Program-made: the position numbers and the translations under genes
Notes under the pieces: generated by a model
The model's database searches: none
What the model saw: the letters and a program-made list of their open reading frames with translations, nothing else
What the model was told of the DNA's origin: nothing
Shown: positions 5,085 through 30,309 of the stretch, piece after piece
Layout of the letters: every line of letters begins with the position of its first letter
Numbering within the stretch: the stretch's first letter is position 1
DNA from: Poseidonia sp.
GTDB lineage: Archaea; Thermoplasmatota; Poseidoniia; Poseidoniales; Poseidoniaceae
Direction of reading: 5' to 3'
Assembly (NCBI GenBank): GCA_965661285.1
Contig: CBFIDD010000004.1
Location: forward strand, 163,328-227,327
DNA length: 64,000 nt

Positions 5085-8000
5085 ATGCCGATGACACGTG
5101 TCGAAGTCACACCACGTCAAGGCGAAGGAATGCGCGATGTTCGAGGGGATGTTGTCCGCCGCCAACTCATGGCGGACCACAACGTTGCTGTTGCCAACGT
5201 GCGTTCCATTTGTGGCTACCTCATCAGCGGCGAAACAGCTTCCTCCGCCATTGCAGAGCGTGTAGACGACCTCTTTGCCGACCCCATTATCGAAATCGGT
5301 GCAACGAACACGTCCATGTTGGCGACGCCGACCTTTGGTGACGTCCCGGAAACGGTCATCACGGTGGGCTTCAAACCCGGGGTGACCGACAACCCGGGTA
5401 AGGCGGCAACCGACGGGTTCCTGACGCTTTTCCCAGACGACAGGGATGCGAACATTGCGACCTACACCACCTATGTGTTCTACGGGTTGCCGGCGGATTG
5501 CGACGCCACGTGGCTTGCTGGCACGCTCCACAACGGTTTGATTGAGCGGGCCCTTATCGGCGACCGCCAAGCGTGCGCAAACCAGGCATGGCCGGAATTG
5601 ATGTTCCCCACGCCTCCCGAACAGGTCTTCATTGAGCCCCAAGCCGTTGACCTCGAATGCGATGATGCAACCCTCGAAGAGATTTCCACCACCGGGTTGC
5701 TCGCTCTCAACTTGAACGAAATGCACGCCATTCAGGCTCACTACCGGGACGAAACGGTGCGCCAACAACGCATCGAGATGGGAATTTCCCCCAGCGCTCC
5801 AACCGATGTTGAACTGGAATGTTTGGCTCAGACATGGAGCGAACACTGCAAACACAAAATCTTCGCATCCCGCATTCACCATGTTGACCATGAAACCGGC
5901 GAAGACACCGTGGTGGATTCTCTGTTCAAAACCCACATCATGAAACCCACCCACGATATGCAAAACGAGGTGGACTGGCTCCTTTCCGTCTTCCATGACA
6001 ACTCTGGCGTCATTGCGTGGGACGACCGATGGAGCGTCTGCATGAAAGCCGAGACGCACAATTCACCCTCGGCTCTCGACCCCTACGGTGGCGCCATGAC
6101 CGGTATCGTAGGCGTCAACCGAGACATCCTCGGAACTGGACTCGGGGCTCGCCCCATTGCCAACACCGACGTGTTCTGTTTTGGCCCGCCCGACTGGGAA
6201 GGCGAACTCCCGGACAATCTCTTTCATCCTTCGCGCGTCCTTCGCGGCGTTCACGCTGGCGTTCGTGTGGGTGGAAACGAATCTGGCATACCCACGGTGA
6301 ACGGGGCGATCGTGTTTGACGACCGCTACATCGGCAAGCCGTTGGTGTACTGCGGTACGGTTGGTATCATGCCGCGGGAACTCCCGGACGGACGTCCGTC
6401 GCACATCAAAACACCCGTTTCGGGCGATATTGTCTACATGGTTGGGGGCCGTGTTGGCTACGACGGCATCCACGGTGCTACGTTTTCTTCGCTTGAACTC
6501 ACCGAGGAATCACCTTCCAGTGCGGTACAAATCGGCGACCCCATCACGCAGAAGAAAATGCTTGACATGGTCCTCGAGGCTCGCGATGCGGGCCTCATCA
6601 CATGCATCACCGACAACGGCGCAGGCGGCCTTTCGTCTTCCATTGGCGAAATGGCAGAATACACGAACGGTTGTGAAATCGACCTCGCCACCGTCCCGCT
6701 CAAACAAGCAGGGCTTTCACCGTGGGAAATTTTGGTATCCGAAAGCCAAGAACGCATGACCATCGCGGTCAAGCCAGAAGACCAAGCTGCCTTTGAAGCG
6801 CTTGCTGCCCTCCATGAAGTCGAAGCAACGGCCGTAGCGACCTTCACTTCCACCGGTATGTTTCATGTTCGCTATGGCGAGACCACCGTGGCTTACCTCC
6901 CTATTGAATTCCTTCACGACGGCGTCCCTCAACTGCAATTGGAATCGGAATGGCGACCGCCCGAACTTCCAACCTTTGTTCCACCAGCCAAAGCCAACCA
7001 TACCGACCTCCTCCGCGGTATGCTGCAACGACCCAACATCGCCAGCAAGGAAACTTGGGTTCGCCAATACGACCACGAGGTCATCGCTCAAACCGCCATC
7101 AAACCCTTTGTTGGCGTAGAGCGAGATGGACCGGGCGATGCAGGGGTCATCGCACCGATTCACGGCGACCCGCACGGGCTCGTCATCTCCTGCGGCATCG
7201 CTCCCCGTTATTCGGACATTGATGCCGGCGCCATGGCGGCCGCCAGTATTGATGAAGCGGTTCGAAATGCTGTTTGTGTTGGACTGGACGTGGATAAGAT
7301 GGCCGGGCTGGACAATTTTTGTTGGCCCGACCCGATAGAATCCACGAAAACACCGGACGGTCGTTTCAAACTTGCACAACTCGTTCGTGCCAACCGTGAG
7401 TTGGAGCGCGTCTGCAGAGCCTATCGCCTTCCATGCGTGAGCGGTAAGGACTCCATGAAAAACGACTACGGGACGGGGCCTGACAAGATCTCCATTCCAC
7501 CCACGCTGTTGTTCTCGCTTTTCGGCGACCACCCTGACGTGCGGAAGAGCGCTACGAGCGATTTCAAAACTGCAGGCGACAAAATCTACCTCGTCGGGCG
7601 ATCAAAACAAGAACTCGGCGCCGCAGAACTGGCGTTTATGCTGACTGAAAGCGGTCAGGCCGAAGGCGTTGGGGGGAATGTCCCGTTGCTTCCACATCCC
7701 GAACAAAACCTCGCCACCTACAGGGCGCTGTCCCAAACCATTCGAGATGGCCTGGTTCGCACAGCTCACGACTGTAGCGAAGGCGGCCTTGCCGTGGCGA
7801 TAGCCGAGATGTGCATCGGTGGGCGCATCGGCGCCACCGTCGACATCGACGGTACGGGGCCCGGTGATGTTTGGGGCCGATTGTGGGGCGAGTCGCTTGG
7901 GCGAATCGTCGTGGCGGTTCCAGAGGAGCACGAAGCAGCCTTCCTTTCTGCAATGAAGGGACATCCAACCACGGTCCTTGGTGAGGTCACCGACAGAAAC

Positions 8001-8956: not shown

Positions 8957-10009
8957 ATGAATAGCGAGAACCGAATCGTTCACATCGACGGTTTACGGGG
9001 TCTTGCAGTTCTGCTCATGGTGCTTGTTCACGCAGCAGCCACGTGGGAGCCCGAACTGTCAGGGCCGTGGCTGTTTTTTGGTGTCGTCGTGTCTGGAGCA
9101 GGCGGACTTGCCGCCCCACTCTTTGTTGCACTGCTCGGGTGGGGTATGGCACAGAAATCGCTTCCCGTCTCCAAACGCATCTGGAGAGCGGGTTTTCTCT
9201 TCCTTTGCCAGTTCTTGGTGAACCTTAGCGCTCCGCATCTTTTCGAACCATGGACACCTGGGGTGCTTTCATTGATGGGGGCACTTGTTCTTCTTGAACC
9301 GGCGTGGCGGAGGGTCTGTGATCGCTTGGGCGACCTCAGGAAAGCGTTTGCGATCGCCTTTGCAGGGGTCGTAGGCCTAACGTTCATTCTTTCACCGTGG
9401 CAGGGGCCATCGGCGTGGGATCCTCGTGTTTCAACCGAAACTGCGGTGATGTTTCTTCAGCACATGACCATAACAGGCCTCTACCCAGTCTTTCCCTGGG
9501 TGGTTTTTGCCTGGTTTGGCCATCTTGTCGCTTCGATGAAGGACCGGAACTTGAGAGAGCGTTGGCTGTGGAGGTCAACCGTTGTCGGGTTGCTTCTCTC
9601 GGCCGCTGTTCTTCTTCGCAGCTTAGAACAGGGACGTCAGTGGGCCCTCCCCACAGGGGATGCGGCGTTGACGTTCTTTCCCGCCAACGGTGCCTTTCTG
9701 ATCGCAGCACTCACGGGCGTGAGTCTGCTGTGGTGGGTTGCAGAGCGCTTCCCACTCACCGATCGTCTGGCCGACCTTGGTCGAGTTTCCCTGACCGTCT
9801 ACGTGTTTCACTTTCTTCCGTTCACCGTTTTTCATGCGTACGATGACATCCATCGGTGGAACCCAGCATTGACCGTCTTGGTCGTTGTGTTCTACACAAT
9901 GGCCTGGTCCCTTGTGGGTACTTGGTTGTCTCGGCGTACGCAGCCCATCACGCTGGAAGCGTGGATGAAGCGACTTGAACCTTCGTCGTATCGTGAACAG
10001 ACCGACTGA
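8957..10009 (+). CDS. Multi-pass membrane acyltransferase-like protein (HGSNAT/DUF1624/DUF418-like)
   Basis: N-terminal RIxxIDGLRGLAVLLMVLVH, LYPVFPW and LGRVSLTVYVFH motifs; many hydrophobic segments. Confidence 0.7.
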   Translation: MNSENRIVHIDGLRGLAVLLMVLVHAAATWEPELSGPWLFFGVVVSGAGGLAAPLFVALLGWGMAQKSLPVSKRIWRAGFLFLCQFLVNLSAPHLFEPWTPGVLSLMGALVLLEPAWRRVCDRLGDLRKAFAIAFAGVVGLTFILSPWQGPSAWDPRVSTETAVMFLQHMTITGLYPVFPWVVFAWFGHLVASMKDRNLRERWLWRSTVVGLLLSAAVLLRSLEQGRQWALPTGDAALTFFPANGAFLIAALTGVSLLWWVAERFPLTDRLADLGRVSLTVYVFHFLPFTVFHAYDDIHRWNPALTVLVVVFYTMAWSLVGTWLSRRTQPITLEAWMKRLEPSSYREQTD

Positions 10010-13723: not shown

Positions 13724-14992
13724 TCAATCTTCGTCGTCCTCGAAGATCACAGGGTCGCCCGTACCACCTGGAGATGGCGGACGAACGCCGTCAACATCCA
13801 TGCCCGGTTCTAATTCGGTTTCTTCGGTTTCCAGCGCCACCTTTTCTCCTTCAGCGAGTTTGGCCATGTCATCAGCCGTTGGGGCCTTGATGGTGCGTTC
13901 AACATCCGGAGCGTTGGCGTACAGTTCACGCTTCAATTCCCGACTCTCATGACTTCGAACCAGTGAGAGTGAATCGGCGAACACACGACCGACAACCTCT
14001 CGAGTTCGCTCACTGCGTCGGGCAGAGTGAAGTTCGTGTTCCATGGAACTGCGCTGTTCCTCCAACTCACGCAGTTCAGCTGTTCGGTCCTGAAGCGCTG
14101 CTTCCAAATCCGTCATGGTGAGGGTCATTTGTTGGATACGCTCGTCGCGCTCGAACACATCGTTGTGAAGGCGACGCTCTCGTCGACGCAGCGATTCATA
14201 TTCGCGATTACGCTCGAGCAGCCGGCGCTTTAATTCCTCGATTTGTTCAACCAGATAATCGTGCTCAGCAGAAACCGAGCGAGGGCCCTGCATGACCCGC
14301 TCGAGTTGTTCTTCAAGCTCAGCCAAACGTCGGTCCCGGGCGTCAAGCAAACCGCGCAAGCGGTCGGCGATGTCGCGAAGGCGCTGACGTTCTTCTTCGA
14401 GGGCTTCCGCAGCCGCTTTTTCAACATCGAGTTGGCGCTGACGTTCGTCCACTTGCTGTTTGAGCAAACGGACTTCCTCGGCGGTCACTGACGTCAGTCC
14501 GGCATCAGCCGCCTTTTCCAACGCCACGACCATTTGAGAGATGCGTCCTTCCATTTCCCCGATGACCTCGTCTTGTTCGGTGGTGAGCGTACGAAGTTGC
14601 TCGAGTTCGCCCTCCATGGACGAACGCTCTTGCTGTGAGAGCGAGGATTGCTGGGATGCCAACTCATCTCGAGTATCGGCGAGAAGTCGCTCGAGGTGAA
14701 TAATTTGGGCCTCGTTTTCCTTTAGCGTCTGTTCGGCTTCTGCAAGGCGGGCCACCTCAGGAGCGATGGTGTCTTGCCGATCGGCCAAGTCGAGCTCAAC
14801 CACCCTCAGTCGTTGTTTGACCGCAACCAGTTCGTCGTTGCGTTTGCCCAACTCCTTCCAGGCCACCAAGACCTCTTCGACGAGTTGTTCAACAGGGTAG
14901 CCCTTGAGCATCCCCTCAAGCGCTGCTTGTTCATCGGTGGTGGATGAACCAACACGTCGAATGCCACCGGGTGACGAACTCTCTACAGCCAT
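13724..14992 (-). CDS. Long coiled-coil protein, unknown function
   Basis: About 330 residues of E/R/L/Q-rich heptad-like sequence between short low-complexity ends; no ATPase motifs, no TM segment. ATG 14992. Confidence 0.8.
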   Translation of the reverse strand: MAVESSSPGGIRRVGSSTTDEQAALEGMLKGYPVEQLVEEVLVAWKELGKRNDELVAVKQRLRVVELDLADRQDTIAPEVARLAEAEQTLKENEAQIIHLERLLADTRDELASQQSSLSQQERSSMEGELEQLRTLTTEQDEVIGEMEGRISQMVVALEKAADAGLTSVTAEEVRLLKQQVDERQRQLDVEKAAAEALEEERQRLRDIADRLRGLLDARDRRLAELEEQLERVMQGPRSVSAEHDYLVEQIEELKRRLLERNREYESLRRRERRLHNDVFERDERIQQMTLTMTDLEAALQDRTAELRELEEQRSSMEHELHSARRSERTREVVGRVFADSLSLVRSHESRELKRELYANAPDVERTIKAPTADDMAKLAEGEKVALETEETELEPGMDVDGVRPPSPGGTGDPVIFEDDED

Positions 14993-15084
14993 ACGGCAAC
15001 GCATCGCAGATTTACCACACTTGAACCTTCCCAAGGTCGCAGGGCAGGAAAGCGGGTATTTGCTACCCTTCAGTCGTCGCCGCC

Positions 15085-16089
15085 TCAGTTGATGGCGGTG
15101 TACATGTCGTCAGGCATTTCGCTGGCGAGTTTGAGAGCGCCGGCAGCAACCGAGTTGATGGGGTCCTCAACGCACCAAACACGAACATCGCCGATGTCGG
15201 AGATTTCGTTGGCCAATCGGTCAGCGATGCCTTCGATGAGGGAACCGCCACCCGAGAGGATGATGTTGTTGCGCAGAATTTGCTGGTATTCTGGGTCGGC
15301 ACCAGCAACGTTTCGCTTAATGGCGTTTCCAATCTTGGGAATGATGAGTTCACAGGCTTCCAAAATGAGGTCGCCGATGTCAACCACCTGTCGCTTTCCG
15401 TCAACGGACAACTCCACGGTCACTTCGTGGGCTTCACCACCGACGTAGGACGATGCTTCCTTCCACTTTCGGACCATGTCTTTGGTGATTTGAGCACCGG
15501 TGTACTTCTTCTTGATGAGCTCCATCAGTTGAAGGTCCAACCAGTCACCGGCTTCGGTGATGGTGACTTGGTCTTCGTCGGTCGGGAATGTTCCGTAGAC
15601 ACGAGCGATGTCGGTGGTACCGGCACCGATGTCCACCACGATTGAGCCTGCGATTTCGTCGATGCCGTAGGCGGTGGCAAAGGGCTCGGTGACGACCATG
15701 ATGGCGTTCACTTGACCTCGTAGCGTGGCGACGAGGTTGGACTTGTCGGTAAAGGAGACGTGGCTGGGCGAACAAATCACGCCGAGAACTTCGTCGTATT
15801 CTTCGGGGTCAACGGTCTCAAGAAGATGGGAAACGAAGGCCTTTGCGGCAGCGAGGTTGGCTTCGTCATCTTGCGTGACACCGGCCGCCATGGGGCGGTA
15901 CAGGTTGCAGGCAAGCTTGTTCTTGAGCGCATCATCGCCGAACAGGACATCTCGGCCCAGGAAATTTCGTGCGACCGGGTCTTTTGGACGGCCAACAACG
16001 GTTTCGATCGTGTGCAATTTACCAGCGCTCGAGGCGATGGTCGATTGGTAGGTTCCAAGGTCAATTCCAACATACAGGCGGTCGCTCAT
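15085..16089 (-). CDS. MamK-like actin-family ATPase
   Basis: Actin-fold motifs GIDLGT, VVTEPF, VDIGAGTTDI, LSGGGSLI, plus MamK-type segments VVGRPKD, GTFPTDEDQVTITEAG, PEYQ, GALKLASEMP. SD GGAAGGTGA. Confidence 0.9.
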   Translation of the reverse strand: MSDRLYVGIDLGTYQSTIASSAGKLHTIETVVGRPKDPVARNFLGRDVLFGDDALKNKLACNLYRPMAAGVTQDDEANLAAAKAFVSHLLETVDPEEYDEVLGVICSPSHVSFTDKSNLVATLRGQVNAIMVVTEPFATAYGIDEIAGSIVVDIGAGTTDIARVYGTFPTDEDQVTITEAGDWLDLQLMELIKKKYTGAQITKDMVRKWKEASSYVGGEAHEVTVELSVDGKRQVVDIGDLILEACELIIPKIGNAIKRNVAGADPEYQQILRNNIILSGGGSLIEGIADRLANEISDIGDVRVWCVEDPINSVAAGALKLASEMPDDMYTAIN

Positions 16090-16270
16090 TTTTGTTCACC
16101 TTCCCACGTGGGATGGTCAACCGAGCATGGCACTGGCCTTCAAGGTTCACATTGGGATTTTGGAAGAGAATTCATGAAAAAACTCTTCAAAACGAGGCTT
16201 TGAACGGCACTCATCAATTAAGTCGATCATCGTTGTCGCTTTTATCGATACCCCAAAACGGACCCGTCAA

Positions 16271-19200
16271 TTAATCTCCCTCCCGTCTCCGGTTTCGAGA
16301 ACCACGTATGAACCAGGCAGTCGCCAATCCAGACAGTACTCCGAGGAAACTCCACAAAACGACTGGCGACCTTACCGCACTCGTTCTTGTGGCGTCGGGT
16401 TCCGCAGCGGTTTCGTTGGTCCCGGGGATCTCAAGATCCTTGCTCAAATCGAGTTGCAGCGATGTGGTAAATGCCGCAGGAGAAGCATTGGTTGTCTTCA
16501 ATTCAACGACCATATTGTAGCGTTCTCCTCTTTGGAGAAACGGGGGAAGGTCATCAGGTAATGTCCACAGACATTGGCTTGTGCCAGGAAGAAGATGTTC
16601 CTGAGAACACGTGAGGAGTGTGATGTTTGGAGCCGATTGGGATCGCACCAACACCGTCGAGATGTATCCATCACCGTCTGCATCCAAAACACTCCAACCA
16701 ACCGAAACCTGCCCGTCAAGGACGGAACCGTTCTCGGGGGCGAAAACCGAGGTCACCACCAACGGGTTATCATCCGGGTAGCATCCATCGCCTCGAACCG
16801 GCCAAGAGACATCCACTGTCGTACACATGTCAACATCATCGGTGATGCCGTCGCCGTCGGTATCGTCCAAGCAACCATCGTCATCGATATCGTACCCCTC
16901 AGCACCGATTTGGGGACACGCATCGTTGATGTTGGCCACACCGTCCTGGTCGTCATCGTCCAAGCAACCGTTCTGGTCTTGGTCGTCCTCGCTCGCATTC
17001 TCCATCGGACAAGCATCCATGATGTTCGAAACACCGTCTCCATCATCATCGAGATGGTCGGCTGAATCACGGTCAACCCCTTTGACAACAAGAGCGAAAC
17101 CAACAGCATCGCCGTCAAGGCCGACAGCACCGCTCATACCACCCGGTTGGACAAAGCGTGCGACGACTTCGATATCGATGAACTCAGACCCGTTGAGCAC
17201 ATCCTGCGGCAGGTTGATTCCAACCACGGTCTCGTTGGATGACGGAAAAGCGGTGCTGTTGTTGGCATCGGTTACACTCCCGAAATACGCCGTGGGCGTG
17301 CCATCGCCTTGAATTTGGTCGGGGAGGTACAACGTGCCATCATCAAGTCGAATGCGTAGTTGGACATCGTCCACCATCGCAGGCTCCGGTTGAGCAGGGA
17401 ACGCCATACGGACTCGCACTTCTTCGCCTGCTATGGGGGTCAGTCGCTGGGTGAACATCTCGCCGGTCCGTAAAAAAGGCCCAACACTCCCTGTTCCGTC
17501 CCAGCCACCGGTGTCCATTCCTGAGAGGTTTCCTGCCGTTCCACCGTTTGCGGTAAACCACGCCTCAACCGACCCTTCTGTTCGTCGGTAACTGTCATGG
17601 ACCCACATATCCGCTGATGGTGAAGTTTCCTCCTCCAGCGCGGAGGGTGAAAGCAACTGGCTGAGGTTGAGCATCCCCCATCCGTCGTAGGTGTTGTGAA
17701 GGGCATGACCGCCGTTACCACCGTTCCGTACTCCGTCGGATAACGGAGAGACCGCCATGGCAAGCGAGGCGCGCATGAGGGCGTTCGAGGGCGAAAAACC
17801 CTCACCCAGTGAGATGTGCTGCACGTCCATGTCCTCTGCCCATACAGGTTGTAAATCGGAGATGTTTTGCAATGTGAGCGGAGCGTAGGCCGGGACAATC
17901 CACCCTTGCTCATACAACTGTTGGACAATCGCGGCGGCACCGGTGGCGTGAGGCGTGGCCATGCTCGTGCCTGATGAGGAACGAAGATTGGCGTTGTTGG
18001 TGTTCCAAAACCCATCCGCGCCCGCCGATTGGATGTTCGCGCCGGGCGCGACGAGGAAGATACCGTCGGTGTTGGCTTCGGTTGGTCCATAGGCGGTTGA
18101 AACCCATCGTTCTCCACTGGTGGCCTTCGTTCCTGCGCTGACGGCCACAACGTTCCGGCCGTTTGCTGGCTCCAACACCCCTTCGCCGCTATTGCCTGGC
18201 GCAATGAATGCCAACGACCACGGCATCGCTCGCGCATAGGCATCGAAGCGTCCAGTTCGTTCCGTGTAAGCCGTCGTGTCGTCTCCCCATGAATTCGAGT
18301 GGAGGAGGGCTCCATGGTGGCTGGCTTCCCACAGCAATCGGTCGGCGTCGGGAGGCACCCAACCGTCCTGTGAGACGATGTCTTGAACCACCAGCGTCGA
18401 CGCGTATGCTAATGTTGAACCGTTGGCCGGCTTGCTGTTTTCCCGGTCGCTGTACACATCATGACACGCCAGGGAACCGATGACGTGTGTTCCATGTCGA
18501 TAGTCGCTGTGCCCCGGGGTATCGTTGTCATCGAGGCTGGTGTTCATATGCTTGATTTTCCGATGTTCTTCGCCAAAGATACCTACTGCAGGGTACACCG
18601 CTTCCGCCTCGGCATATGGGGAGGTGCTGTTCGTTGCGTTCCGAAAACAGGTGTGGTCGGCATCGATTCCGCTATCAGCAACACCGAGGACAACGCCAGA
18701 ACCGTTCAATCCAAGTTGCCAGAAAGGATGTTGAGAGGTGAATCCGTGTTCCATCAGGGAAGCAGCTTGGCCGTTGCGGCCTTGGGCTTCAAGGACGGGC
18801 TCAATCCACAGCACCCCATCGAGTTGGAGCATCCATTCCACAAGGTGAGCATCATCGACGTAGACGAACGCGGATGCCGGCACATTTCCGTAAACATCCA
18901 ATGATGCTGACAGGACATGAGCGCCACGGTGCTCAAAGGACCGCAGGAGTCGCTGGGCGGCATCTTCGGGTAATCGAGGCTCGAAGAGGATGTTGATGGC
19001 TGAAGGACCTGTTTCCAACGGAGAAATGTCTGAGCGCCATGACGCCGGATGAACGGATTCCTGCCCCACTCCTTCCGGCCAAGACGACATGGGCGTCGAC
19101 CACACCAACAAGGCATCGGACCGGACACTTCTCAACGGCTGAATGTTGTGAGAAAGCAAGCTTGACCACTTCTCGGAAGTCCACACACCGTCGGGAAGAA

Positions 19201-19315
19201 CAAGCAAGTGTTCGCCGGCCGGCAGCTCGTTGGGTTCTTCCCGGAGATCGCTGAGCGTCCATCCCGATGCAAGGGGCAAGAGGAGCATTGCCACCAGCCA
19301 CGCACCACCTCGCAT
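16271..19315 (-). CDS. Secreted, membrane-anchored S8 subtilisin-like serine protease with TSP3-like Ca-binding repeats
   Basis: Signal peptide; catalytic triad VADSGID / HGTHVIGS / SSGTSMATP; DDDGDGV/DTDGDGI repeats; C-terminal TM helix followed by a basic tail. Confidence 0.9.
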   Translation of the reverse strand: MRGGAWLVAMLLLPLASGWTLSDLREEPNELPAGEHLLVLPDGVWTSEKWSSLLSHNIQPLRSVRSDALLVWSTPMSSWPEGVGQESVHPASWRSDISPLETGPSAINILFEPRLPEDAAQRLLRSFEHRGAHVLSASLDVYGNVPASAFVYVDDAHLVEWMLQLDGVLWIEPVLEAQGRNGQAASLMEHGFTSQHPFWQLGLNGSGVVLGVADSGIDADHTCFRNATNSTSPYAEAEAVYPAVGIFGEEHRKIKHMNTSLDDNDTPGHSDYRHGTHVIGSLACHDVYSDRENSKPANGSTLAYASTLVVQDIVSQDGWVPPDADRLLWEASHHGALLHSNSWGDDTTAYTERTGRFDAYARAMPWSLAFIAPGNSGEGVLEPANGRNVVAVSAGTKATSGERWVSTAYGPTEANTDGIFLVAPGANIQSAGADGFWNTNNANLRSSSGTSMATPHATGAAAIVQQLYEQGWIVPAYAPLTLQNISDLQPVWAEDMDVQHISLGEGFSPSNALMRASLAMAVSPLSDGVRNGGNGGHALHNTYDGWGMLNLSQLLSPSALEEETSPSADMWVHDSYRRTEGSVEAWFTANGGTAGNLSGMDTGGWDGTGSVGPFLRTGEMFTQRLTPIAGEEVRVRMAFPAQPEPAMVDDVQLRIRLDDGTLYLPDQIQGDGTPTAYFGSVTDANNSTAFPSSNETVVGINLPQDVLNGSEFIDIEVVARFVQPGGMSGAVGLDGDAVGFALVVKGVDRDSADHLDDDGDGVSNIMDACPMENASEDDQDQNGCLDDDDQDGVANINDACPQIGAEGYDIDDDGCLDDTDGDGITDDVDMCTTVDVSWPVRGDGCYPDDNPLVVTSVFAPENGSVLDGQVSVGWSVLDADGDGYISTVLVRSQSAPNITLLTCSQEHLLPGTSQCLWTLPDDLPPFLQRGERYNMVVELKTTNASPAAFTTSLQLDLSKDLEIPGTNETAAEPDATRTSAVRSPVVLWSFLGVLSGLATAWFIRGSRNRRREGD

Positions 19316-28901: not shown

Positions 28902-28965
28902 ACGAGTCCACGACCCCCTCTCTTGGGCGAAGGGTCAAGGGCCGGCGGCGAGGACGAGGCGCTTG

Positions 28966-30309
28966 ATGGCAACCCACGGTGACCACCCGACACTTCCTGA
29001 ACATCTTGAGTCGCTGCTCATGGACGATGTCCACACGGTCTTCCTGAAGGCAGATTGTCCGCCCCGAATTAAGCGTGGCGCCATCGGTTCACTCAAGCTG
29101 GTTGAAGCGGAATCCTCCGTCGCCAATTGGGACACCCTCACACTCGAACAGCTCGAAGAAGACTTGGTTGCCTTGGTGGAAGAGCACCGTTATCGCAGCG
29201 ATTGTTTCTTGGAAATTGACCGGAAGGGCTGTCGCGTCATCCAACTGGGCGACCTTCGCATCACGTCAGCATGGCCGCCATTTTCCGATGCAAGGGAAAT
29301 CACGGTTGTGCGACCCGTTGCAAAACTCAGCCTCGGTGACTACGACTTGGACAATCGTTTGGTGGAACGTTTGCGCAACCACCACCGGGGGGTCTTCATC
29401 TGCGGCCGACCCGGCTCAGGCAAAACCACGCTGGCCCAGGCCATTGCCGAATACCTCGACAACGACGTCGGAGCGTTGGTGAAAACGATGGAGGCGCCTC
29501 GCGACCTGCAGCTTGCGGACCGCATCACGCAATATGCGCCCCTCGAGGGGGATTTGGAAAAAACCGCCGAGATCATCTTCCTTGTTCGTCCCGATTTTGT
29601 CATCTTTGACGAAGTCCGACGCGCCCGAGATTTCGAGATCTTCGCCGATGTTCGGTTGGCAGGCGTTGGTTTGTTGGGCGTCACGCACGCAAACTCAGCC
29701 TTGGAGGCCATTCAACGGCTCATCGGCAAGGTTGAACTCGGCTTGGTCAGTCAAGTTCTCGACACCATCTTGCACGTTGAATCTGGAAAAATTCAGCAAG
29801 TGTTGGAGTTGCGGATGACCGTCAAACCGCCCACCGGGATGCAAGAAGAGCTGGCACGTCCGGTGATTGAAGTGGTTGAATTCCCGAGCGGCAAACTCAC
29901 TCATGAAATGTTTGCCTTTGGTTCAGAAATCGCCGTTGTCCCCCTCGAAGGGCGCGCCACAACCAACGACCTTTCACCGGTGAGGGCCATGGCAAAGGAT
30001 CGCATTATCGAGACCGTTCGTCAATGGGTGGGTGTCGAGTGTCAAGTTCGTTTTTCGAGCGACACGTCCGCTGTCATCTACGCTCCTTCGAACATGATTT
30101 CGACCTTGGTCGGGCGCGGTGGTGAGAACGTCAAACAACTGCAAAACGAGTTGGGCGGCATGCGATTGAGTATTGAATCGTTTGATGACATGCCCGAAGG
30201 GCTGGAGCAACCCAACCGGTTTTGGCAGGACAACCGCAAGAAAGGAGACGCGTGGGAGAATCCCCGCCGAAAAGGCAAGTCTGCCCGTAGGAAGCAACGA
30301 AAACGTTAG
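28966..30309 (+). CDS. PINA-like ATPase (PilT/VirB11-type ATPase + KH domain) lacking an N-terminal PIN domain
   Basis: Walker A GRPGSGKT, KTMEAPRDLQ, RPDFVIFDEVR, FADVRLAGVG, KH motif LVGRGGENVK. Confidence 0.85.
   Translation: MATHGDHPTLPEHLESLLMDDVHTVFLKADCPPRIKRGAIGSLKLVEAESSVANWDTLTLEQLEEDLVALVEEHRYRSDCFLEIDRKGCRVIQLGDLRITSAWPPFSDAREITVVRPVAKLSLGDYDLDNRLVERLRNHHRGVFICGRPGSGKTTLAQAIAEYLDNDVGALVKTMEAPRDLQLADRITQYAPLEGDLEKTAEIIFLVRPDFVIFDEVRRARDFEIFADVRLAGVGLLGVTHANSALEAIQRLIGKVELGLVSQVLDTILHVESGKIQQVLELRMTVKPPTGMQEELARPVIEVVEFPSGKLTHEMFAFGSEIAVVPLEGRATTNDLSPVRAMAKDRIIETVRQWVGVECQVRFSSDTSAVIYAPSNMISTLVGRGGENVKQLQNELGGMRLSIESFDDMPEGLEQPNRFWQDNRKKGDAWENPRRKGKSARRKQRKR

Follow-up and report, generated by a model that had tools for sequence, protein, structure and literature searches.

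What might an actin of the MamK kind be doing in a marine archaeon that is not magnetotactic? The question is raised by a gene, here called actin1, in a stretch of 64,000 nucleotides (the window; positions 163,328 to 227,327 of contig CBFIDD010000004.1, assembly GCA_965661285.1) from Poseidonia sp., a member of the order Poseidoniales within Marine Group II. Published abstracts describe these archaea as uncultured and as ranking with the most abundant archaea in surface seawater, and their cell biology has hardly been explored. We consider it probable that actin1, a member of the MamK-like superfamily, works in a filament system of two parts, the second being the coiled-coil protein (coil) whose gene follows directly downstream, and that this system is dispensable and has no part in magnetosomes. 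The argument leans on the following features of the window.

15085 to 16089, minus strand: actin1, an intact open reading frame of 334 amino acids with an ATG start, encoding a MamK-like actin-fold ATPase.
16096 to 16104, minus strand: Shine-Dalgarno-like sequence GGAAGGTGA, 6 nucleotides before the actin1 ATG, read from the sequence.
13724 to 14992, minus strand: coil, 422 amino acids from the ATG at 14992, directly downstream of actin1.
14528 to 14944, minus strand: coil residues ~17 to 155, the N-terminal module, matched by the short-coil profile A3.
13727 to 14527, minus strand: coil residues ~156 to 422, which include the second and third helices and invariant blocks, followed by PGG and an acidic tail.

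In a phmmer search of all PDB chains, the best match of actin1 was Magnetospirillum MamK (5jyg, 5ljw and 5ljv; E 9.3e-64, 219 bits), with an alignment that runs over the full length (query residues 3 to 330, chain residues 10 to 338) and contains a single one-residue gap. Lower scores were obtained for BeeR (8r2n; 146 bits, E 1.7e-41), MreB (53 bits, E ~1e-13) and the eukaryotic actins (at most 38 bits, E at least 1e-8). Foldseek, run on a mediocre model of actin1, returned the same order (MamK, E 1e-26; BeeR, 3e-22; MreB, ~1e-14; then actins), and the identity to MamK in the structural alignment was ~33 to 34%. Among the curated NCBIfam models, MamK (NF040964) scored 341.8 bits, which is below its threshold of 400 and nevertheless far above the scores of BeeR (NF053558; 216 bits versus a cut-off of 530), the MreB models (65 to 86 bits versus cut-offs of 293 to 515, the best being 86 versus 293), salactin (NF053533; 35.6 bits versus 400) and ParM (NF010498; 20 bits versus 417). 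The same preference extends to the relatives, since MamK or BeeR was the best NCBIfam model for every one of the 79 full-length proteins (78 representatives and the second paralogue of the window's genome) that were scanned. One scanned protein of 768 amino acids (P0168) combines a full FtsZ at its N terminus (351 bits) with an above-cut-off MamK at its C terminus (446 bits).

The original prediction, made from the letters and a list of open reading frames alone, had described the reading frame as it is given above, had placed the protein closer to MamK than to MreB, crenactin or ParM (the scores bear this out for MreB and ParM, and the same holds against salactin), and had listed six pairs of matching segments, all of which do occur in order in the alignment to 5jyg and 5ljw: RLYVGIDLGT/RLFLGIDLGT, VVGRPKD/VVGYPKD, VDIGAGTTDI (identical in both), GTFPTDEDQVTITEAG/GTVPGPEDQVTLTKAG, PEYQQILRNNIILSGGGS/PEYQATVLQNIVFAGGGS and GALKLASEMP/GALRLAEELP. 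Its claim of complete ATPase motifs, including the catalytic glutamate of TEPF, was likewise borne out. The nucleotide-binding residues D10, G12, T13, E135 (in TEPF), D153, G155, G157, T158, G280 and G281 are invariant in 11 of 11 aligned orthologues, and the list of invariant columns shows no variation among them at the core positions of four motifs, namely, phosphate-1, connect-1 (TEPF), phosphate-2 and adenosine. Five actin ATPase motifs have been defined for MamK, and all five, as listed in that study (PMC10653835), are present in actin1. The phosphate-1 motif begins at residue 8, with only 7 residues preceding it; there is no long terminal extension. Given that MamK is the closest curated family, that the alignment is collinear over the full length and that all ATPase motifs are present, actin1 belongs to the MamK-like superfamily, which comprises MamK, BeeR, saltatorellin and unnamed relatives.

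Actin1 is conserved at 71 to 88% identity across 11 other genera from three families, compared with 53 to 71% for the neighboring GGGP synthase and 60 to 72% for FtsY where the latter is whole. It has more than 1,000 homologues, the best 120 of which (83 to 98% identity) come from metagenome-assembled genomes (MAGs) of Poseidoniales, namely, Poseidoniaceae and Thalassarchaeaceae. The strong Shine-Dalgarno sequence and the biased codons that had been predicted are both there: with an effective number of codons (Nc) of 41.1, actin1 ranks 62nd among the 1,295 open reading frames of at least 150 amino acids in the genome, a bias that fits high expression rather than demonstrating it.

The window's genome (G000; 1.98 Mb in 8 contigs, 93% complete) holds a second actin of this kind, which forms, together with its neighbor, a separate locus.

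G000 contig C2, 139875 to 142024, minus strand for both genes (locus L044, 5986 to 7011 and 7134 to 8150): the second actin paralogue and its zinc-ribbon partner.

The paralogue (341 amino acids) is 47% identical to actin1 and scores 363.8 bits on the MamK model (cut-off 400). In nine of nine loci from other genera, it directly follows a lineage-specific protein of 338 amino acids with zinc ribbons at both ends (Pfam hints below the cut-off), while its other neighbors vary. Each paralogue has its own partner at its own locus, the 422-residue coiled coil in the case of actin1 and the 338-residue zinc-ribbon protein in the case of the second copy. A third Pfam MreB_Mbl match in the genome (C1, 371614 to 372663) lies inside a frame of 642 amino acids and is, judging by that length, probably Hsp70/DnaK. 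Genome G004 seemed to hold a third actin copy, but the actin1 locus occurs there twice in full and 6% of this genome is contamination, to which we attribute the extra copy.

To place both paralogues, relatives were collected by a scan of 1.84 billion representative proteins, which gave 1,294 matches at E ≤0.001 and 130 at E ≤1e-30. The nearest relatives outside the Poseidoniales are proteins of 523 to 1,232 amino acids with the actin at the C terminus (42 to 47% identity), assigned to candidate division KSB1 where a taxon is named; N-terminal to the actin, the long KSB1 proteins carry a coiled coil and a long low-complexity linker (190 to 900 extra residues). Two trees were built, a quick mixture-model tree of 108 rows and a careful LG+G4 tree of 68 rows. 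In both, actin1 and the paralogue are sisters (support of 98 and 99/98, respectively) and join the KSB1 actins (96 and 96/95), while a clade containing P0165, a close relative of the solved MamK (508 bits on the NCBIfam MamK model and 463 bits against PDB MamK), stands apart (97 and 100/97). BeeR-like proteins are nested within the superfamily, and the actin copies of other Thermoplasmatota fall elsewhere. Forcing the Poseidoniales proteins and the MamK clade together made the 108-row tree 13.9 log-likelihood units better than the free one (approximately unbiased [AU] test, p 0.72), which indicates that the free search on this set was incomplete; on the 68-row set, the same constraint was 50.2 units worse (AU p 0.032). 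The clade used in these tests was named after the tree had been seen. On this basis, actin1 probably lies outside the magnetosome MamK clade, a placement short of proof. The predicted assignment to a MamK type therefore stands at the level of the superfamily, where the scores support it, and probably not at that of MamK proper, given the score below the MamK cut-off, the grouping with KSB1 and the probable position outside the magnetosome clade. The Poseidoniales actin is probably of bacterial origin, with most of the representatives in the tree bearing no taxon name.

In every genus examined, 92 nucleotides separate the gene for coil from actin1, and the two share a strand (the start codon of coil was chosen from an alignment of orthologues; the list of open reading frames has it begin at the TTG at 15034). 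The gene order of S8 protease, actin1, coil and then GGGP synthase on the opposite strand was found in 11 of 11 loci from 11 other genera in three families, and ribosomal protein LX, prefoldin and FtsY are syntenic across the order as well. An AlphaFold2 model of coil (predicted local distance difference test [pLDDT] score of 78.5) consists of three long helices (residues 34 to 163, 170 to 235 and 242 to 359), followed by a disordered acidic tail, and the breaks between the helices coincide with the invariant motifs AGLTSxTAxEVR and GPRSxSAEH. The second of these belongs to a longer invariant block, GPRSxSAEHxYL...RNREYE..RRRERRLH, and both blocks fall within residues ~156 to 422; the most invariant stretch spans residues 236 to 285. 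A Pfam scan gave no family above the cut-off for coil, including no DNA-binding domain, and the NCBIfam matches are weak and of the SMC-like coiled-coil type. In the ESM Atlas, coil falls into Thermoplasmatota clusters of its own and then, weakly, next to crescentin rod clusters (0.92, 144 shared features). Of 251 Thermoplasmatota genomes searched with a coil profile, 42 matched, all of them in the two Poseidoniales families sampled, and no homologue was found in the sampled Thermoplasmatota outside the Poseidoniales.

In a sample of 121 Poseidoniales genomes from 21 genera, the actin1 query matched 76 (59 of 59 in family f1 in addition to the window's own genome, 2 of 2 in f2 and 14 of 59 in f3); this query also detects the paralogue, and nearly every positive genome holds both copies. 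The full-length coil was found in 74 of the 121 genomes and the zinc-ribbon protein in 76, with the same phyletic pattern as that of actin1. All four genes occur in the same 14 of the 21 genera, and none of them was found in seven genera of Thalassarchaeaceae (g11 to g14, g16, g20 and g21; 43 genomes), whose genomes measure 1.2 to 1.6 Mb (most of them 83 to 97% complete), as against 1.6 to 2.2 Mb in actin-bearing genera. An apparent loss in genus g17 is uninformative, the contig of genome G029 ending at the GGGP synthase gene. Outside the order, a MamK-family match was obtained in seven of the sampled Thermoplasmatota genomes and in none of seven genomes of the sister family of the same class. 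A link between the actin and the archaellum was also considered: archaellin (PF01917) was not found in the actin-bearing genera g9, g10 and g18 (0 of 8 genomes) and was present in 9 of 10 genomes of g16 and g21, where no actin was found; archaellin presence does not track the actin, and we rejected an obligate link.

At four loci of genera without the actin (two from g13, one each from g16 and g21), the GGGP synthase and LX genes lie 0.6 to 1.6 kb apart, with neither the S8 protease nor actin1 between them. Each of the four slots holds an open gene of 140 to 165 amino acids, on the expected strand, that is homologous to coil residues ~17 to 155 and stops at the end of helix 1. When a profile built from the short genes was run over the order, it detected the short coil in 32 of the 43 genomes of the seven actin-less genera, in frames of 141 to 189 amino acids except for one of 109 that is cut by a contig end; in actin-bearing genera, the profile matches the N-terminal part of a frame of 385 to 481 amino acids (three frames are truncated at contig ends or close to them). 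A careful tree of the N-terminal part (17 rows) unites the short forms in a single clade (100/99) that lies among the long forms of Thalassarchaeaceae and has a stem of 1.8 changes per site. In one event or one short series of events, then, the S8 protease, actin1, coil residues ~156 to 422 and the unlinked pair of paralogue and zinc-ribbon partner were lost, and the first rod of coil was kept as an intact gene. The original prediction did not include coil, the paralogue with its partner or this loss of the set in one lineage. Residues ~156 to 422 were found only where the actin was found and are missing from the short form. Since only the N-terminal rod survives in actin-less genera, the distal part of coil appears to be tied to the actin, a pattern that is suggestive rather than statistical because it goes back to one event, in a lineage that lost much besides.

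In the actin-less genera, the DNA that separates the short coil from the GGGP synthase gene carries small genes that differ from genus to genus.

L055, 9793 to 10161: 122 amino acids.
L058, 5613 to 6140: 175 amino acids, cysteine rich.
L059, 7967 to 8812: 281 amino acids.

Putting these elements together, we propose that a Poseidoniales ancestor had an actin, probably acquired from bacteria, that was duplicated early into two paralogues. Actin1 would be a nucleotide-dependent filament former, whose cytoplasmic filaments would work with coil; we infer polymerization because the motifs are intact and because the two studied nonmagnetosome relatives, BeeR and saltatorellin, polymerize. Coil would be modular, with an N-terminal rod (residues ~17 to 155) that has a job of its own and an actin-linked part (residues ~156 to 422); that the two proteins bind each other directly, and through which part of coil, is a further supposition of this model. 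The paralogue and its zinc-ribbon partner would probably be a sister system or a partner for copolymerization, and the whole set would be dispensable, one small-genome lineage of Thalassarchaeaceae having dropped it. As to its role, control of cell shape or size or internal organization would come first in likelihood, the positioning of an unknown cargo or of the neighboring membrane-anchored protease next, and DNA segregation last. The original prediction had guessed at a dynamic filament for positioning a cargo or shaping the cell, a role that is likewise conjectural. In a more ambitious version, which we put forward only tentatively, the Poseidoniales would have possessed a two-filament actin cytoskeleton of bacterial origin, with two ancient paralogues each served by a dedicated adaptor; the second rod and acidic tail of coil would couple the filament, possibly holding the protease or the envelope, and the loss in a single step would have accompanied genome streamlining.

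Several observations weigh against the proposed two-part system. The AlphaFold2 model of actin1 itself, built from 11 close orthologues, is poor (pLDDT 65, predicted template modeling score 0.67), and the backbone of the trees is unresolved, such that the position of actin1 relative to the magnetosome MamK clade is not firm. Because synteny extends well beyond the two genes, their adjacency is weak evidence of a partnership. Coil is also less conserved than actin1 (46 to 73% versus 68 to 88% identity), its codon usage is unremarkable (Nc 50.9, 784th of 1,295), and a comparison of its model with solved structures by Foldseek yielded nothing better than E 4.5, for generic coiled coils such as the iSH2 region of PI3K p85. 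Finally, the lineage that lost the genes shed about a quarter of its genome, and the joint loss of four genes counts as one data point.

One alternative is that the actin is real and coil an independent structural protein, for instance, a crescentin-like intermediate-filament rod that merely shared a slot and a loss with it. The order-wide synteny of the region, the single loss in a lineage that discarded much else and the persistence of the N-terminal rod without any actin speak for this reading. So does the ESM Atlas, where no named cluster resembles coil more than the crescentin rods do, at a score of 0.92 that is a lead only. However, it is just the part beyond residue ~155, with the protein's most invariant blocks, that vanishes with the actin; the two genes keep their 92-nucleotide spacing on one strand in every genus examined; and MamK-like actins of other lineages also have coiled-coil neighbors or fusions. 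We regard an independent coil as unlikely, although it is the alternative that we take most seriously. That the actin drives DNA segregation in the manner of ParM, AlfA or salactin, pushing or pulling chromosome copies with the partner protein as adaptor, seems to us distinctly improbable. The zinc ribbons of the paralogue's partner, if these subthreshold Pfam hints are correct, could bind nucleic acid, and the SMC-like matches of coil, weak as they are, point in the same direction; yet the actin scores only 20 bits on ParM and 36 on salactin versus 342 on MamK, coil has no Pfam DNA-binding domain, the genes are chromosomal, single copy and spread over the order, and seven genera that must still segregate their DNA do without them. 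No centromere-like repeat was seen, and no search for such repeats was made.

That the protein might nonetheless serve as an MreB, i.e., as a membrane-bound guide of envelope synthesis, is what public annotation implies, with homologues named "rod shape-determining protein MreB" by their sources where they are not simply hypothetical, and the best Pfam family of actin1 is indeed the broad MreB_Mbl (85.6 bits versus a cut-off of 27). That cut-off, though, is passed by MamK-like proteins generally, according to the precomputed Pfam annotation of the homologues, and on the narrower NCBIfam models the gap between MreB (65 to 86 bits, cut-offs of 293 to 515) and MamK (342 bits) is wide. Escherichia coli MreB, the outgroup on a single long branch, is far from actin1 in both trees. 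The predicted absence of mreC and mreD near the gene extends to the whole 93% complete genome, in which profiles that recovered MreC in seven and MreD in five bacterial control genomes found neither, and we know of no peptidoglycan wall in Poseidoniales for such a protein to guide. We therefore think an MreB function very improbable. A true MamK organizing magnetosome-like organelles, at the other extreme, we judge to be barely conceivable, even though MamK is the closest solved and curated family and the union with its clade was not rejected on the quick 108-row tree (AU p 0.72). The careful tree separates the two clades (50 units worse when forced together, p 0.032), the score is 342 bits versus a cut-off of 400, and the genome yielded no match to MamP and none to MamI, the latter being a weak negative, since the MamI search was also blank in every control genome. 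For MamQ, there was only a generic LemA-like match (50 bits versus a cut-off of 250), and no mam-type Pfam family occurs among the scanned neighbors of actin1. In the literature search, Marine Group II was nowhere linked to magnetosomes or MamK among the matches listed. As far as these searches reach, the original prediction was right that other mam genes are missing and that the host, a Marine Group II archaeon without MamP or MamI, is not magnetotactic. With its score below the MamK threshold and a genome that lacks MamI and MamP, actin1 is not a magnetosome protein.

We return, then, to a two-part filament system of actin1 and coil, and to how it compares with systems already described. It shares with Magnetospirillum MamK (5jyg, 5ljv, 5ljw; NF040964), its best match by sequence, profile and fold, the five ATPase motifs and the presence nearby of genes for accessory proteins, which are putative in the case of actin1. 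The accessory proteins of MamK are MamJ, MamY and McaA/B, and its filaments are ATP dependent, two stranded and nonstaggered. It differs from MamK in its archaeal host, in the absence of magnetosome genes and in having a lineage-specific coiled-coil partner without detectable similarity to anything named. BeeR and saltatorellin are likewise MamK-like actins of nonmagnetotactic organisms and set a precedent for roles beyond magnetosomes: BeeR of Opitutus terrae (8r2n) polymerizes with ATP in vitro into a three-stranded tube and has as its hallmark a disordered N terminus of 30 to 50 residues (PMC11929497), and saltatorellin of Saltatorellus ferox forms filaments in E. coli and Magnetospirillum gryphiswaldense (bioRxiv 10.1101/817700). 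Both of these proteins are bacterial, and actin1, besides scoring only 216 bits on the BeeR model (cut-off 530), has no disordered N-terminal extension. The haloarchaeal salactin and volactin resemble it as archaeal actins outside the crenactin/Asgard line, and salactin was placed nearest MamK by the authors of one study (PMC10746226); even so, actin1 scores a mere 32 to 36 bits on salactin (on the Pfam model, 31.6 bits barely pass the cut-off of 27.1) and 26 bits on volactin, and these proteins belong to another lineage (Methanotecta) and have no partner in common with it. With ParM-ParR, crenactin-arcadin-2 and MreB-crescentin, finally, the proposed mode of working would be shared, in which an actin and a helical protein dedicated to it are encoded together in a small operon; no relationship of coil to any of those partners emerged from sequence or fold.

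The KSB1 actins (P0122 to P0136; locus L053), which are the sister group, come closest in arrangement, with two paralogues and an actin combined with a coiled-coil element. Here, however, the coiled coil is fused to the N terminus of the actin and, at the one locus available, the neighbors are Roadblock/LC7 proteins and a small Ras/Arf-like GTPase. Specifically, positions 5341 to 11662 of L053, a contig from a KSB1 MAG, encode a long actin of 707 amino acids with an N-terminal coiled coil and then a short actin 70% identical to it, followed by a DUF4388-Roadblock protein, a Roadblock/LC7 protein and the GTPase; no mam-like gene lies within 6 kb. This locus looks like an actin joined to a polarity module of the MglA/MglB type. 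We asked whether gene fission or fusion could connect the KSB1 coiled coil with that of the Poseidoniales, and rejected the idea, since hhalign gave a homology probability of 0.6%.

Other Thermoplasmatota offer further variants. In loci L015, L016 and L017 (families f43, f46 and f40), MamK-like actins with a lysine/arginine-rich N-terminal extension are followed by a protein of ~430 to 450 amino acids; these proteins are 26 to 37% identical to one another and have a globular head, a tail that is either a coiled coil or rich in proline and glutamine, and no Pfam domain. Homology between them and coil was considered and likewise dismissed, the hidden Markov model comparisons giving E 0.038 or worse. 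In L020 and L021 (f19), the genes of a chemotaxis cluster enclose a MamK-like actin, in the order end of a CheA-type kinase, CheD, actin, unknown protein of 324 to 342 amino acids and CheC. Coiled-coil partners thus appear, from sequence comparison, to recur around MamK-like actins while being mutually nonhomologous.

On the other side of actin1, one more gene shares both its synteny and its loss.

16271 to 19315, minus strand: S8 subtilase of 1,014 amino acids (Peptidase_S8, 96 bits), directly upstream of actin1.

The protease begins with a hydrophobic stretch, in our reading a signal peptide, and carries a membrane anchor at its C terminus. It was found upstream of actin1 in all 11 loci (in L034 as a partial match at a contig end) and is missing together with actin1 from the four loci of actin-less genera; it is a possible member of the module. 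In all 12 orthologues (window 16271 to 16500; L025 to L035), the C-terminal end consists of a hydrophobic anchor followed by a cytoplasmic tail that is short and variable, and no tail motif is common to the 12; a shared tail motif was accordingly rejected. Just three of them (L025, L027 and L028) read DPF or PPF with an acidic end, which slightly resembles the tail of coil, DPV[IL][FY]EDED; the tail in the window does not. The other neighbors of actin1 are, by Pfam, the GGGP synthase and a rhodopsin and, by reading of the translation, an ABC transporter.

Two short DNA motifs lie upstream of the two genes.

16137 to 16150, minus strand: GTGAACCTTGAAGG, upstream of actin1, with the core TGAACCTT.
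15020 to 15030, minus strand: GAAGGTTCAAG, ~30 to 45 nucleotides before the start of coil.

The core TGAACCTT before actin1 is the reverse complement of the core of the GAAGGTTCAAG motif before coil. By eye, a recognizable copy of GTGAACCTT(G/C)AA stands 50 to 65 nucleotides before the actin ATG in ~9 of 12 loci, including the window, and the 14-mer GTGAACCTTGAAGG is unique in the genome. A copy of GAAGGTTCAAG with no more than ~2 changes was found in all 12 orthologous regions upstream of coil, and the genome contains five exact copies, against ~0.7 expected.

Window 15020 to 15030: exact copy of GAAGGTTCAAG, the one before coil.
Window 9974 to 9984: exact copy.
G000 C1, 534354: exact copy.
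G000 C2, 245761: exact copy.
G000 C5, 170687: exact copy.

Its 7-mers are only 1.1- to 1.8-fold enriched in intergenic DNA, so the motif is no word of intergenic DNA in general. Further copies between genes, with one mismatch at the most, stand 22 to 44 nucleotides before four genes, which encode an HhH protein, an unknown protein of 335 amino acids, topoisomerase I and a KH-domain ATPase (window 28963 to 30309). These four genes have no common theme that would point to a regulon marked by GAAGGTTCAAG.

The literature search returned, among the matches listed, no paper on actin1 or on any actin in Marine Group II. The actin family itself is known; what is new is the archaeal arrangement of two paralogues with two partners, together with the truncation series. 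The public label "rod shape-determining protein MreB" is misleading for these genes. The natural series, with the full coil where there is an actin and the first rod alone where there is none, predicts which part of the partner would touch the filament. If our reading is correct, actin1 would give the MamK-like superfamily, whose roles outside magnetosomes are only starting to be studied, a clear representative among the archaea, and this conserved, codon-optimized actin with its dedicated partners would constitute the first described cytoskeletal system of Marine Group II.

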